Source: a virus. Taken from it: a DNA stretch of 11,926 bases. A program made the position numbers and the translations under genes. Numbering within the stretch: the first letter of the stretch is position 1; each line of letters starts with the position of its first letter. The notes under the pieces were generated by a model. It was not told the DNA's origin, searched no databases, and worked only from the letters and a program-made list of their open reading frames with translations. The stretch lies in the UHGV virus genome UHGV-1578451. One strand, written 5' to 3'. This document shows, piece after piece, positions 1,313 to 11,019 of this stretch.

Positions 1313-1711
1313 TCAACCCACAGCTGGACATATAACCACCTCTTTTTTATATGCCGTTATGGTTATCTCAACTTTTCCCTTCGGTACTATCGGTCCCCAT
1401 TCCACCAGCATTCGCTTAATCTGGCTGTCGTCTTCCCAGACACCCGCATGCGTCAGCGCGTCAAACAGGGCTTTGTTGTAATTATCGATATCCCGGCGGC
1501 GCGCATCCGGCGGGTACAGAGTGATTTCTACCGCTGCCAGTTCAGTCGATGGCTTCGGGAGACGTCGTAATTGCTCAATGATCGCCACGCAGGCAGCGCT
1601 CTGGTATTTACGACCATCAGCGCTAATGAGGTGACGACCGGCCAGCGGCCCCTTGTTAGGAGCGCGTCAGTAAGTGTTCACGCTGGGTGGAAATGGGAGT
1701 ATGAGCCTCAT
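1313..1711 (-). pseudogene. rusA: rusA-like Holliday-junction resolvase interrupted by an in-frame TGA at codon 15
   Basis: From ATG 1711-1709 (GGAGG 6 nt upstream) the frame reads MRLILPFPPSVNTY, then TGA at 1669-1667, then continues in the SAME frame as RAPNKGPLAGRHLISADGRKYQSAACVAIIEQL...PDARRRDIDNYNKALFDALTHAGVWEDDSQI...VEITITAYKK to the stop at 1313. Both sides of the TGA match the RusA family (E. coli RusA: ITLPWPPSNNRYYRHNRG...[31 protein letters not shown]), and the TGA sits where homologs have an aromatic residue (probably TGG Trp). The ORF table shows only the 91-aa GTG-1588 restart fragment (1313..1588). Confidence 0.65.
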
Positions 1712-1833
1712 TAAAAGCCTCCGTCATAATTCCTGAAACATACCTCAACTTTCCCGCTATAGTGACGAACACGTTGAACAACATCCGAAATAGGCGCTAT
1801 ACCGGCAGGGCGATAAAAGACTGTTTCACGCAT
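1711..1833 (-). CDS. small hypothetical protein (40 aa), translationally coupled between the methyltransferase gene and rusA
   Basis: ATG 1833-1831 overlaps the upstream stop (ATGCGTGA) and is preceded by AGGGGG at a 7-nt spacing. Encodes MRETVFYRPAGIAPISDVVQRVRHYSGKVEVCFRNYDGGF. Its TAA stop (1713-1711) shares one base with the rusA ATG (TAATG). Below the size cut-off of the ORF table; no homolog recognised. Confidence 0.3.
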   Translation of the reverse strand: MRETVFYRPAGIAPISDVVQRVRHYSGKVEVCFRNYDGGF

Positions 1834-3187
1834 GAGTTACCCCCTGCATGCTGTCGACAAGACCTTGCGCAATTGTGATAATTTCGCTGGTGGCCGTTCG
1901 TTCCAGCCAGAGTTGATTGATGTTGGCTTTCAGCTTGTTCTGCTGTGATTCATCCAGCATGTCAGCGCCGTCTACCTGGTCGAATACAATTCCAACCTCC
2001 AGCGGCCAGATACGGGACTCGGGAAGCGGATCCGCTACTGGTTTAGCTTTCTCACGGATGTGCATGCGGATCTGGCGAATATTGGACCAACTGGAAACAT
2101 CCAGGCTTCCCATAGCTGCAATGAAATCAGTACTGTTCATGCCATATTCACCAGATGCTTCAAGGGCAACAGTCCGAATACGTTCCGACATATCCAAGCG
2201 CGCAGCAGCGTCATCGAATTCAATCGACAACAGCCACTCATCCACACCGAACAAAATACTCTCACGAATAAGCAGCTTCGCTTTGTCGATCGTTAATGGT
2301 GATACCTGAGTGAATTCCGGTGCTTCGACAGAATCCGCCGCCCAGGTATGCCCAAACTTCGATTCACTGAATGTGTATTCTTCTTTATCGCCGAACGCAG
2401 CTCTAACGCATGCCCACGCCTCGACACCGCTGATATCAAAAATATCTTTCTGGGTAAGTGGCAACTCTGCTTCTGGCTTGTCAGCTACAGATGGTGTGAC
2501 AGTTGCAGGTTGAGACTTGCTGACAGCAAATTGCGCCAAAGTCATAAACGCCTGCCCTTTTGCCTCCAGTTCTGTACGGTTGATATAGCTGAACCGCTCA
2601 CCACGCCATGACTTATCAAATACAGCTATGGCACCGGCAAAAAACGCGCTGGTGGGCTTCTGTTTTTCGTCAGCCGGTATAAACCACACAGGCAGATCGA
2701 ACCCAATGCGCCCGCGAATGAATACAATGTGATCGGCATCTTCCGGCCACCACGTTTCACTCGGCGCGGCTTTTATCAGGAATACATAGCGACCGCCCTT
2801 CTCGCGCTGGTCTGCTGCGTACTTCATGATGTGCGTCATACCAGTGATCGCCTGTTTCTCGTGATACTGCGAACGGCTATACGGTGGGTTGCCATAACCA
2901 GCGCCACCCAGTTCTGTAAGACGTTCAGACCAGTCCTGCGTCAGCGCGTTATCTTCGGCGGTGTACCATGCCGGGCATTTCGCGTTGTCGTCGTCAGCAA
3001 ACAAGTCCAGAACTAATGGACCAAATAGCGCGTTGATCCCCCAAAAAAGCAGATCCGGTGTCCGCCACTGATCGCCAACTTCTTTCAATTCGTGAGCTGG
3101 TTTGCTACGCAGTGCCGCCAGCGCCTGGCAATATTTATTGGTATCATGAACGAAACCCCGAATTTTCTGGCAGTGAGTAATCAACAC
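1826..3187 (-). CDS. phage Dam-family N6-adenine DNA methyltransferase fused to an uncharacterised ~300-aa C-terminal domain
   Basis: Continuous minus-strand ORF with TGA stop at 1826-1828. Residues ~97-250 of the maximal ORF carry the phage Dam-family signature: DQWRTPDLLF, LDLFADDDNAKCPAWY, GNPPYS (NPPY catalytic motif), FLIKAAPSETWW, FIRGRIGF. The following ~300 residues (FDKSWRGERFSY...AQGLVDSMQGVTHA) match nothing I recognise. The maximal ORF starts at ATG 3361, but its first 58 codons overlap the 3' end of the O-like gene in another frame and look non-coding. I place the start at GTG 3187 (44-nt overlap with O); TTG 3088 is also possible. No candidate has a good Shine-Dalgarno sequence. 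Confidence 0.75.
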   Translation of the reverse strand: MLITHCQKIRGFVHDTNKYCQALAALRSKPAHELKEVGDQWRTPDLLFWGINALFGPLVLDLFADDDNAKCPAWYTAEDNALTQDWSERLTELGGAGYGNPPYSRSQYHEKQAITGMTHIMKYAADQREKGGRYVFLIKAAPSETWWPEDADHIVFIRGRIGFDLPVWFIPADEKQKPTSAFFAGAIAVFDKSWRGERFSYINRTELEAKGQAFMTLAQFAVSKSQPATVTPSVADKPEAELPLTQKDIFDISGVEAWACVRAAFGDKEEYTFSESKFGHTWAADSVEAPEFTQVSPLTIDKAKLLIRESILFGVDEWLLSIEFDDAAARLDMSERIRTVALEASGEYGMNSTDFIAAMGSLDVSSWSNIRQIRMHIREKAKPVADPLPESRIWPLEVGIVFDQVDGADMLDESQQNKLKANINQLWLERTATSEIITIAQGLVDSMQGVTHA

Positions 3188-4010
3188 TCTGGAAGTTTGC
3201 GCGGCTGGCTGAGTTAGTCTCCCATTTGCCGTTAACGCGTTCAGGCCGGCCAGCACTGGACCATTTGGTCGCGCTTTGCAGGTAACCAGGGAAGTTTTTT
3301 GGAATGAACAGAGTTGCCGGGCGGAGGTATTGCGCCTGCTCGCTATCACGCCAATCGGCATTTTTGTAATCCACTACCAGGCACAGGTCATCAACCGTGA
3401 ATTGTTCCCGAAGACGGGCGCGAATATTCTCCAGCGACGTACTGCATACCTGGTAGCGTGAGCCAGTTGTCTGGTTCAGGTAAGACAAGACCTGTCTGGC
3501 CTGATCAGTAATCACAACCTCAGGGTCTGGTTGCGCAGCAACCGGACAAGAGGGTTTTGAAGTTACTTGTGGATCTTGTTTTGATTTTACTGACGGATCC
3601 CCGCCAGATTCTGACGGGTCAAAACCACCGTTTTTGCCAGATTTCGACGGGTCAGTTTTTGAGGCGTCAAATTTTGATGCGTCAGATTTTGATGTGTCAG
3701 AATCTGACAGTTGAGAAAATGCGGCAGTCTGAAGTTTCGCCACATTCAGGCGATACACGTTCGAAGCATTACGGTTACCATTACGGCGCTGTGTACGCGT
3801 GAGCCAGCCATCTTTTTCAAGCTTTGCGATTGCCGTTCTGATAGTGCTCGGGCCCGCGCCAAGCTGGCGAGCAATAGTTTCAATTGACGGCCAGCACACA
3901 CCTTCATCGCTGCTGAAGTCAGCAAGGCGAGCCATGATCGCAACACTGGACAACTTCATGCCCGACGCTGCGCAACCATCCCATACGTAGCCGGTTAATT
4001 TAGTGCTCAT
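3144..4010 (-). CDS. replication initiation protein, O-like (N-terminal winged-helix DNA-binding domain, repeat linker, C-terminal phage replisome-organiser domain)
   Basis: ATG at 4010, TGA at 3144-3146, 288 aa. N-terminus (SSVAIMARLADFSSDEGVCWPSIETIARQLGAGPSTIRTAIAKLEKDGWLTR) is a winged-helix/HTH of the type seen in phage replication initiators. C-terminus (VITDQARQVLSYLNQTTGSRYQVCSTSLENIRARLREQFTVDDLCLVVDYKNADWRDSEQAQYLRPATLF) resembles the conserved phage replication-protein C-terminal domain. A low-complexity linker between them is encoded by the iteron-like repeats. Position after cro/cII matches lambdoid gene order. Confidence 0.8.
   Translation of the reverse strand: MSTKLTGYVWDGCAASGMKLSSVAIMARLADFSSDEGVCWPSIETIARQLGAGPSTIRTAIAKLEKDGWLTRTQRRNGNRNASNVYRLNVAKLQTAAFSQLSDSDTSKSDASKFDASKTDPSKSGKNGGFDPSESGGDPSVKSKQDPQVTSKPSCPVAAQPDPEVVITDQARQVLSYLNQTTGSRYQVCSTSLENIRARLREQFTVDDLCLVVDYKNADWRDSEQAQYLRPATLFIPKNFPGYLQSATKWSSAGRPERVNGKWETNSASRANFQSVDYSLPENSGFRS
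3585..3713. repeat. iteron-like array of ~15-bp direct repeats inside the O-like gene (putative phage replication origin)
   Basis: Plus-strand units: AGATTCTGACGGGTC (3606-3620), AGATTTCGACGGGTC (3639-3653), AGTTTTTGAGGCGTC (3654-3668), AAATTTTGATGCGTC (3669-3683), AGATTTTGATGTGTC (3684-3698), AGAATCTGACAGTTG (3699-3713), plus a degenerate copy at 3585-3599. An AT-richer stretch (3556-3590) follows in the direction of transcription. Lambda places its ori iterons in the same position, inside the O linker. Confidence 0.55.
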
Positions 4011-9994: not shown

Positions 9995-10270
9995 ATGAGC
10001 AAATTTACAGACGTACATGACCTGTTAACCGCGTACCAGAAACAAGCTCGTAAGATACCACCTAAGGGTGTTTATGCCTCAAGACATCGGCAGGTTGAGG
10101 TAAACGCGGCCCACGTGCGAAAGATAATGCGTAAGCGTCGGCGGTCAGTCGGCAAGTCAAATAAACTCGGATGTCGCTTTACGGCGGAAATGCGCGTAGC
10201 ACTGATTTGCGATATGAATTTTTGGGCTCTGGTATGTCGCTCTAACCGTAATCAGGAGCATGCATCATGA
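9995..10270 (+). CDS. hypothetical small basic phage protein
   Basis: 91 aa; ATG 9995 is preceded by GGGGAG. Its TGA stop (10268-10270) overlaps the next ATG (ATGA). Basic stretch KIMRKRRRSVGK. No family recognised. Confidence 0.55.
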   Translation: MSKFTDVHDLLTAYQKQARKIPPKGVYASRHRQVEVNAAHVRKIMRKRRRSVGKSNKLGCRFTAEMRVALICDMNFWALVCRSNRNQEHAS

Positions 10271-11019
10271 CAACTAACCACCCGGCGCACGGTCCTGTAT
10301 CACTCGAGCGCCTGCACCAGATAAGCGAAATACTCAGCAAAGCAGCAGCACAAAGCGACGGCGGTAATCTCGGCTACGCAATGGCTGATGCAGTGAAGGT
10401 TATTGATGGGGCTATTGCAGCGTTTAGCTCTGAGCCACAACGAAACCCTGTGTTGACCTATGCGGATAGTTATCGCGATATGGCTGAGCGCGGAGTTGAA
10501 TCTATCCCGGTCTGGAGCGTAATAATTGACCTTGAAAGAAACATCGCTCCACTCTACACCGCCCCGCCAGCGCCGGTAGTGCCAACGTTCGATGAATGGC
10601 TGGCAATTCGCGGTGATAAGCCACTTGGTTGGGTTAAAGACGCGATGCGTGAATCGTATGATGCTTGCCGCGCCGCCATGCTTCAGCATGATCCAGTTTG
10701 CACATGCCCTAGTGGTGACGGTTCGCTACGCTGGCCGTGTCCGGTGCATCCTGGCAACTCTCCGGTTACTCCGGATGGTTGGGCTTTGGTGCCTAAGAGG
10801 CTAACCGCCGAGAACGGCGCAAAGGGTGTGCTGTCCGGTGAGTTTTCAGAAACGAAATTTATAAACTGCCCAGAGTGTTTTGGTGATGATGAATGCGAAA
10901 CATGCGACGGCAGCGGTCGAATTGAGATAACAGTGCCAGTCAGTTGGACGAACATCAAGGCCATTTGGGCTAAAGGTGTCGAGCATTTCGAAGCAGCACC
11001 TCAGCAGGAGAATGTATAA
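10267..11019 (+). CDS. hypothetical phage protein with C-terminal DnaJ-type CxxCxGxG zinc-finger motifs
   Basis: 250 aa; ATG 10267 is preceded by AGGAG. C-terminal cysteine cluster CTCPSGDG...WPCPVHPG...CPECFGDDECETCDGSGR contains paired CxxC(xGxG) units typical of zinc ribbons / DnaJ-like zinc fingers. Confidence 0.65.
   Translation: MTTNHPAHGPVSLERLHQISEILSKAAAQSDGGNLGYAMADAVKVIDGAIAAFSSEPQRNPVLTYADSYRDMAERGVESIPVWSVIIDLERNIAPLYTAPPAPVVPTFDEWLAIRGDKPLGWVKDAMRESYDACRAAMLQHDPVCTCPSGDGSLRWPCPVHPGNSPVTPDGWALVPKRLTAENGAKGVLSGEFSETKFINCPECFGDDECETCDGSGRIEITVPVSWTNIKAIWAKGVEHFEAAPQQENV

Follow-up and report, generated by a model that had tools for sequence, protein, structure and literature searches.

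What does a phage adenine methyltransferase gain when its reading frame runs on for some 240 residues behind the catalytic domain? The question is raised by a gene on the minus strand of virus genome UHGV-1578451, from which a stretch of 11,926 nucleotides (the window) was analysed. The locus is that of a lambdoid-prophage orphan adenine methyltransferase, and the long form of the enzyme, of about 439 residues, is widespread in the prophages of Enterobacterales. Its Dam head carries two separately mobile modules, M and C, and the copy in the window has lost its start; on balance, we think it somewhat more likely than not that the modules are accessories that bind proteins. Coordinates are collected in Table 1. 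Residue numbers refer to the 438-residue product of 1829–3142, except where the 511-codon maximal reading frame is named; positions within M are numbered separately.

Catalytic head and reading frame

The Pfam family PF05869 matches residues 90–271 of the 511-codon reading with an E-value of 2.3e-44 and 151.5 bits (cut-off 28.1), spanning profile positions 3–168 of 169 and thus nearly the whole profile, and the NCBIfam model TIGR01712, 'phage N-6-adenine-methyltransferase', scores 206.4 bits against a cut-off of 97.05. The Dam motifs DQWRTP, LDLFADDDNAKC, GNPPYS and FIRGRIGF, named in the initial annotation, are all found in the translation, and these two matches confirm its assignment of the head. 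GNPPYS occupies residues 84–89, with LDLFADD upstream at 45–51, and both are conserved across alignment A3; the head thus has a (D/N)PPY motif with an S-adenosylmethionine-binding region ahead of it. The final Dam helix ends near residue 208. The ratio of non-synonymous to synonymous substitution rates (dN/dS), computed over 72 distinct genes, is 0.05 for the head.

PF05869/TIGR01712 includes the Dam enzymes of phages T1, HP1 and VT2, and the adenine-methylation target of its characterised members is GATC. This sequence is neither enriched nor avoided in the window, occurring 44 times where 45 are expected. Like other phage Dam enzymes of the family, the protein matches the head end to end, carries NPPY, is encoded among lambdoid early genes and has no partner restriction enzyme. 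Those enzymes are mostly head-only, whereas the window form adds about 240 C-terminal residues and has no usable start.

The frame reported at 1826–3361 is present on the minus strand with its 511 codons, but a protein of 511 residues is not encoded: the first 72 codons overlap the upstream O-like gene and are open through a frameshift at the 5' end. In the 89 relatives compared, the start is retained and the gene product has about 439 residues. All of them have a G that is absent between 3143 and 3142 in the window, where the junction reads ATGAT-ACC instead of the ATGATGACC of Escherichia coli Nissle 1917 and strain 1943. Because this base is missing, the ancestral ATG is out of frame, and it now begins a peptide of 20 codons. 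When the starts of 90 loci (the window and the 89 relatives) were compared, an in-frame ATG was found one to four codons ahead of the conserved NKYCQ in 89 of the 89 relatives, the window being the sole exception; its closest in-frame ATG lies 74 codons upstream, and no alternative start with a Shine-Dalgarno-like motif was seen on reading the window sequence. An ATG overlapping the O-like stop, with a product of 439–444 residues, is found in Nissle 1917, strain 1943, two Logan contigs and phage Eeyore.

With its conserved start put out of frame by a one-base deletion, the methyltransferase gene of the window is not an intact translatable gene, and this copy is probably an inactive pseudogene. 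A second lesion affects the neighbouring RusA-family resolvase gene, where positions 1667–1669 read TGA instead of the TGG (tryptophan of the PPSVNTYW motif) of strain 1943 and Nissle 1917. Together, the start lesion and this TGA suggest either prophage decay or sequence errors. If the sequence is accurate, the window copy would be an inactivated remnant within a decaying prophage. M-bearing genes split or truncated by frameshift also occur in several related loci (L135, 5911–6470; L039; L043; L174, 4232–5516), so decay of such a gene is not unique to the window.

Given these lesions, the long frame itself might be suspected to be an artefact, a separate Dam gene and its downstream neighbour having been fused in the window by a frameshift or an assembly error. 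This is scarcely credible. Dam-M-C occurs as the same unbroken frame in 80 IMG/VR loci that are independent of one another and in 24 complete E. coli genomes in which 80% or more of the query is covered. Dozens of protein clusters from Citrobacter, Klebsiella, Salmonella, Pantoea and Erwinia show it too, and RefSeq annotates Dam-M-C as one coding sequence. The joining of two genes by a sequencing frameshift, which had been named as an outcome that would overturn the fusion, is ruled out by the loci and the E. coli genomes. As had been expected, the Dam proteins of isolated phages are by and large short: among these phages, 512 records have a Dam head, 15 a C tail and three the full Dam-M-C arrangement, but the long form is abundant in prophages, that of Nissle 1917 among them.

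The closest named relatives are WP_001704140.1 (Nissle 1917) and WP_096035032.1 (strain 1943), orthologues of 439 residues annotated as 'phage N-6-adenine-methyltransferase', with the Dam-M-C arrangement and the same neighbours. Their DNA is 96–98.6% identical to that of the window, and they keep the ATG coupled to the O-like stop. Eeyore gp32 (444 residues; L002, 3398–4732) is likewise a Dam-M-C orthologue; unlike the window, Eeyore has kept the start and a downstream C5-cytosine methyltransferase gene.

Two modules in the tail

The tail of unassigned function is real, in that no Pfam, NCBIfam or PADLOC family spans the whole of it, but its length is about 240 residues rather than about 300. 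Nor is it one domain: it consists of a 147-residue cassette (M, residues 222–368), reached by a linker that extends to about residue 221, and, after a second, short linker, a 64-residue tail (C, residues 375–438), and the two have distinct distributions. The core of M carries the motif AAFGxKxEYTFSESKFxHTWAADS, and 13 of its positions are invariant across Dam-linked, ParB-linked and distant versions (P7, A27, F29, S40, H44, W46, D49, P54, V59, R100, N133, R135 and R138). The net charge is −10 over the 147 residues of M and −7 over 70 residues of C; the isoelectric point (pI) of C is 4.18 for the 70-residue stretch from 2038.

An AlphaFold model of M and C, based on an alignment of 34 sequences, has a mean predicted local distance difference test score (pLDDT) of 90.2 and contains 12 helices, nine of them in M and three in C; the hinge that joins the modules is modelled with low confidence. 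In a model of the full-length protein, for which the alignment was shallow, the Dam head has a pLDDT below 50, and that part was not used. dN/dS is 0.08 in the first third of M (M1), 0.19 in the rest (M2) and 0.12 in C; the linker is the least constrained part, at 0.26. M and C are thus predicted to be real folded domains, and both are under purifying selection.

The two modules can be told apart by where each occurs. An architecture census of 154 related loci from IMG/VR and other sources contains 80 with Dam-M-C, 69 with ParB-M, three with truncated Dam-M and one each with ParB-M-C and M-C. In short forms of 293–297 residues (ST64B Sb44, LLS gp45, P0106 and P0113), the linker leads directly to C and exactly M is missing. 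Proteins of the Sb44 type (PADLOC PDLC03332 'MTase_II', phrog_111), together with LLS gp45 and the phiNP methyltransferase, have the same head, linker position and place behind the O-like gene as the window form, and their C is 72–77% identical to that of the window; they differ in lacking the 147 residues between linker and C.

Conversely, M is found without Dam or C at the C-terminus of ParB-like proteins, namely gp48 of Pantoea phage AH07, P0131, P0132, P0135 and P0136. Their M is 35–43% identical to that of the window, has the same invariant residues, is likewise C-terminal on a flexible linker, and is encoded in the same slot behind the O-like gene. Their head is not a methyltransferase but an N-terminal ParB fold followed by HTH_ParB, as in ParB/Spo0J-like proteins. 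In ParB-like proteins without M (265–277 residues), the alignment with AH07 gp48 extends to about its residue 275. M has therefore been added to a complete ParB body and does not take the place of the C-terminal dimerisation domain of ParB/Spo0J. C is absent from all these proteins except in locus L119 (5116–6633), the sole ParB-M-C fusion (505 residues), which is followed directly by a C5-methyltransferase gene; C can thus also be joined to ParB-M. Three candidates for a free-standing M (P0134, P0146 and P0150) turned out to be frameshifted, truncated or contig-edge pieces of fusions.

Searches with the tail and with 12 diverse M sequences found nothing in Pfam at E-values up to 10. M has no NCBIfam or PADLOC match, the M-only proteins scanned match no PHROG, and sequence searches of the PDB with M and C and a PDB profile search gave nothing, nor did the fold search find a significant relative of either module. 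The initial view that the tail holds no assignable motif is therefore borne out for M in Pfam, NCBIfam, PADLOC, PHROGs and the PDB. When M was searched exhaustively with phmmer against 1.84 billion representative proteins, only 21 clusters were returned; M is thus a narrow family, largely of Enterobacterales.

C is matched only where it forms the terminal part of methyltransferase families, namely phrog_111, phrog_16025 (an 85-position profile) and PDLC03332. The PDLC03332 match falls into two stretches, residues 2–223 aligning to positions 3–224 and C to 232–293 of 297, while the phrog_111 match aligns residues 2–438 to positions 43–345. The Dam head and C tail of the ST64B Sb44 short form are thus both recognised, one at each end, but they do not form a contiguous protein of about 295 residues, as M lies between them. 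That the tail might belong to a well-characterised family commonly fused to Dam, the other outcome that was to count against the initial proposal, is half true: C is commonly fused to Dam, as in PDLC03332 and phrog_111, but these families leave its role unexplained, and M matches none. A search of the literature on PF05869, the methyltransferase C-terminal domain, the Nissle methylome, phiNP and DpdB/ParB found no study of M or C. RefSeq already lists the protein, and the general name given there is correct; what appears to be undescribed is that the tail is modular, that ParB-like proteins share M, and that C and a C5-methyltransferase form the cassette presented below.

Some phage orthologues carry another name. 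The proteins of Eeyore and Flotzy and the RefSeq entry for ST64B sb44 (L004, 3081–3974) are labelled 'phosphoadenosine phosphosulfate reductase'. In the two that were scanned, Eeyore and ST64B, Pfam finds Dam only, and Eeyore gp32 matches only the Dam-like end (positions 283–490 of 495) of phrog_33262, the PHROG of that name; the label is unsupported.

The second theme in the distribution of C is its association with C5-cytosine methyltransferases. Of 75 Dam-M-C loci, 37 have a gene for such an enzyme, of 640–660 residues, directly downstream, as does the only ParB-M-C locus; none of 68 ParB-M loci has one, and there is none in the window. In Klebsiella phage 5 LV-2017 (L182, 3435–5662), C is a separate gene of 85 codons (ARB15724.1; E=1.3e-18 against the C profile), the stop of which overlaps the GTG start of a C5-methyltransferase 71% identical to that of Eeyore. 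Unlike the C of the window, it stands apart from Dam, and its gene is not part of the replication module. More than 555 IMG/VR loci have relatives of C; among the best 80, those closest to the free-standing form (L184–L263), the C5-methyltransferase starts within 3 nt of the C stop in 78, and no Dam, O-like, M or RusA gene lies within 4 kb of C in any of the 80. The resulting cassette, an 85-residue C-module protein and a C5-methyltransferase of about 650 residues, is located outside replication modules. C therefore travels with the C5-methyltransferase independently of Dam and of the replication genes, and in the Sb44 lineage it has been joined to the Dam gene upstream, at the end of that gene.

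The slot behind the O-like gene

The placement in a replication module was correct: the methyltransferase gene lies directly downstream of an O-like initiator gene (Table 1). The surrounding module is lambdoid: a cI-like LexA-family repressor, a cII-like CP76 protein and RdgC are encoded to one side of the gene, RusA and an antirepressor to the opposite side. No RNA genes were found in the window.

Table 1. Position of the methyltransferase gene, its parts and its neighbours in the window
Feature	Position	Strand	Remarks
RusA-family resolvase gene	1313..1711	-	broken by TGA 1667-1669
40-codon open reading frame (MRETVFYRPAG...)	1711..1833	-	ATG overlaps methyltransferase end; terminates at RusA start
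Maximal open reading frame, 511 codons and stop	1826..3361	-	gene body 1826-3142 by orthologue comparison
Module C, 64-residue acidic three-helix tail	1829..2020	-	motifs WPLEV and INQLWLER
Module M, 147-residue all-helical acidic cassette (pI 4.65)	2039..2479	-	alignments; no family match
Pro/Ala/Ser/Thr low-complexity linker, site of M insertion	2480..2542	-	alignments A2/A3, dN/dS 0.26, low pLDDT
Dam-family N6-adenine methyltransferase domain (PF05869/TIGR01712)	2549..3094	-	NPPY motif in GNPPYS
Ancestral start region	3143..3147	-	ATG 3145-3147 overlaps O-like stop TGA 3144-3146
O-like/DnaD-like replication initiator (HTH_36 and Phg_2220_C)	3144..4010	-	normally translationally coupled to methyltransferase gene

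The same order recurs among the relatives. An O-like gene is directly upstream (−1) in 79 of 80 Dam-M-C loci. For the ParB-M loci with an open reading frame at −1 (n=66), it occupies −1 in 16 and −2 in 46 (62 in total), and where it is at −2, a small MarR/PerC-like gene usually lies in between. Dam heads (512 phage records) and ParB heads (288) occur in many contexts; in the samples examined, either head carries M only in the slot behind the O-like gene. A gene order of cII, ParB, O and P without M is seen in Erwinia phage 59 and Klebsiella phage Mulock. Their M-less ParB-like proteins (vB_EhrS_59, L177, 3001–5482; Mulock, L178, 3001–5557) are 64–67% identical to the AH07 head and are encoded between cII and a lambda-type O/P pair, overlapping the start of O. 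It thus appears that lambdoid replication modules of several kinds regularly include a ParB-like protein.

The O-like proteins of Eeyore, which has Dam-M-C, and of LLS, which has Dam-C, are identical at 282 of 284 residues. M is therefore dispensable for that initiator, and a co-variation of the O-like protein with M was rejected on this pair. No helicase or loader gene is annotated in the annotated stretches of eight relatives, including the complete 45-kb viable phage Eeyore (L169), and the window contains no helicase, DnaC-like or lambda P-like gene. In the window, the O-like protein matches PHROGs named 'DnaD-like helicase loader' and 'primosomal protein'. It is presumably this DnaD-like protein that fills the helicase or loader role, and it seems to be the only dedicated replication protein. 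Within its gene, at 3638–3701, a 15-bp unit (consensus CAGATTTTGATGCGT) is repeated in tandem 4.3 times, in the part that encodes a linker rich in SD(A/T)SK. The repeats resemble the iterons of a lambda-style origin inside the initiator gene, and three GATC sites lie just downstream of them, at 3503–3599.

Downstream of the methyltransferase gene, the 40-codon open reading frame is kept in six related loci and is absent from Nissle 1917 and strain 1943. For ParB-M, no consistent downstream partner was found; RusA, DUF968 or assorted defence-like genes follow instead. A link between M and 7-deazaguanine modification by DpdA, suggested by AH07 gp49 and Eeyore gp14, was also rejected: DpdA-like genes lie within 6 kb in 10 of 68 ParB-M loci and in none of 75 Dam-M-C loci, and BTP1, SfI and SPN3UB are among the many phages with DpdA-like proteins that are missing from the M search matches. 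At 10267–11019 on the plus strand of the window, beside a 3'-5' exonuclease gene, lies an open reading frame of 250 codons with no Pfam match, matching only PHROGs without an assigned function (phrog_60). It contains the CxxC-rich stretch CPECFGDDECETCDGSG and is unrelated to the DpdA-like protein encoded beside the exonuclease gene of Eeyore.

Possible roles of M and C

In intact relatives, the Dam head most likely methylates phage and host DNA in the early replicative phase, probably at GATC, and translational coupling to the O-like gene would ensure expression together with the early replication genes. M and C are most likely interaction modules, tethered by linkers, which couple DNA-modifying or DNA-binding heads to protein partners; we take them as protein-binding because they are acidic and all-helical and have no nucleic-acid-binding or catalytic signature. 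C would work with DNA methyltransferases, chiefly the C5 enzyme or something that the C5 enzyme needs, a pairing proposed because of the gene fusion and the tight coupling. M would serve DNA-acting heads beside DnaD-type origins. Of the functions offered for the tail in the initial annotation, partner binding fits best; targeting to replication forks draws its support only from gene position and is weakened by the Eeyore and LLS pair and by the free-standing form of C.

Several observations weigh against this interpretation. The strictly conserved polar residues of M (serine, histidine, tryptophan, aspartate, asparagine and three arginines) could mark a catalytic or ligand-binding site, and its link to the slot behind the O-like gene could reflect the recombination history of mosaic phages, not function. 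C is under similar constraint without an adjacent C5-methyltransferase (ratio of non-synonymous to synonymous polymorphism, pN/pS, of 0.21) and with one (0.18), so that it may have a role independent of this enzyme, or those genomes may hold a copy of the enzyme elsewhere. Both the missing base and the TGA may have arisen in sequencing, and the window copy would then be intact.

A more specific role would be replication-coupled targeting: M and/or C would anchor the methyltransferase, or the ParB-like protein, at the replisome or on the O-like initiator, and newly made phage DNA would thereby be modified at the fork or the origin. M-bearing genes do follow an O gene of the Phg_2220_C type directly, usually with overlapping stop and start; the M-bearing phages have no annotated helicase or loader; and the restriction of M, on both kinds of head, to this one slot is the best argument for such a role. 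We nevertheless consider it unlikely: M does not co-vary with O, as Eeyore and LLS show, none of the 80 loci with a free-standing C has an O-like gene near C and its C5-methyltransferase, and no family or fold that binds the clamp, single-stranded DNA-binding protein or helicase was detected, while the position may be mere linkage. The same position, that of P in lambda, in phages that lack P, DnaC and DnaB, might instead suggest that the gene is an analogue of the helicase loader and that its tail recruits the helicase, the loader being absent from the eight annotated relatives, Eeyore included. However, the proteins encoded in the slot have no module that all of them share, as M is missing from Dam-C and both Dam and C are missing from ParB-M, which speaks against an essential function such as the loading of a helicase. 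There is also no sequence or fold likeness to lambda P (Phage_lambda_P), IstB/DnaC or DnaD, and the O-like protein is itself DnaD-like and matches loader PHROGs, which makes this alternative very improbable.

M and/or C could also be anti-defence passengers, small acidic inhibitors of host defence; C, for example, might act against methylation-dependent type IV restriction of the McrBC or Mrr-like kind, to which DNA modified by the phage's own methyltransferases would otherwise fall victim. C5-cytosine-methylated DNA is a target of type IV restriction in enteric hosts, and C is tightly coupled to a large phage C5-methyltransferase (78 of 80). Both modules are acidic and helical, and their slot gathers other modification genes (for C5 and MT-A70 methyltransferases and DpdA-like proteins) as well as defence-like genes. 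On the other hand, Pfam, PADLOC and fold searches found no likeness to a known anti-restriction family or fold, the net charges are modest compared with those of known DNA mimics, and a GATC-type Dam is harmless in Dam-positive hosts and needs no protection. M and C do not fit DNA-mimic anti-restriction proteins of the Ocr, ArdA or Arn type, while other kinds of inhibitor are compatible with the data; altogether, the chances of an anti-defence role seem small.

Returning to Dam with its two mobile, probably protein-binding accessories, the message for the window itself is modest: it holds a known, widely distributed prophage methyltransferase, here probably a pseudogene, and the annotations to be corrected are the overcalled length of 511 residues and the reductase label of the phage orthologues. 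The wider interest lies in the family. Few accessory genes are as common in temperate phages as those for orphan methyltransferases, the targeting and regulation of which are largely unexplained. Separately mobile modules, M shared with ParB-like proteins and C tied to the C5-methyltransferase, point to concrete, testable partners, and phages Eeyore (with M) and LLS (without M), the initiators of which are 99% identical, form a natural control pair. A bolder proposal, which we put forward as possible though doubtful, sees in M and C two families of portable domains, not described before, that serve phage DNA-modification enzymes as accessories. C would be a small partner on which prophage C5-methyltransferases depend, for example as an activator or scaffold or as an inhibitor of methylation-dependent restriction, and M an adaptor recruiting Dam or ParB-like proteins to a common target near DnaD-type origins. 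If this is true, the Dam fusion would be a 'Rosetta stone' for a multi-enzyme DNA-modification complex acting in early phage replication.

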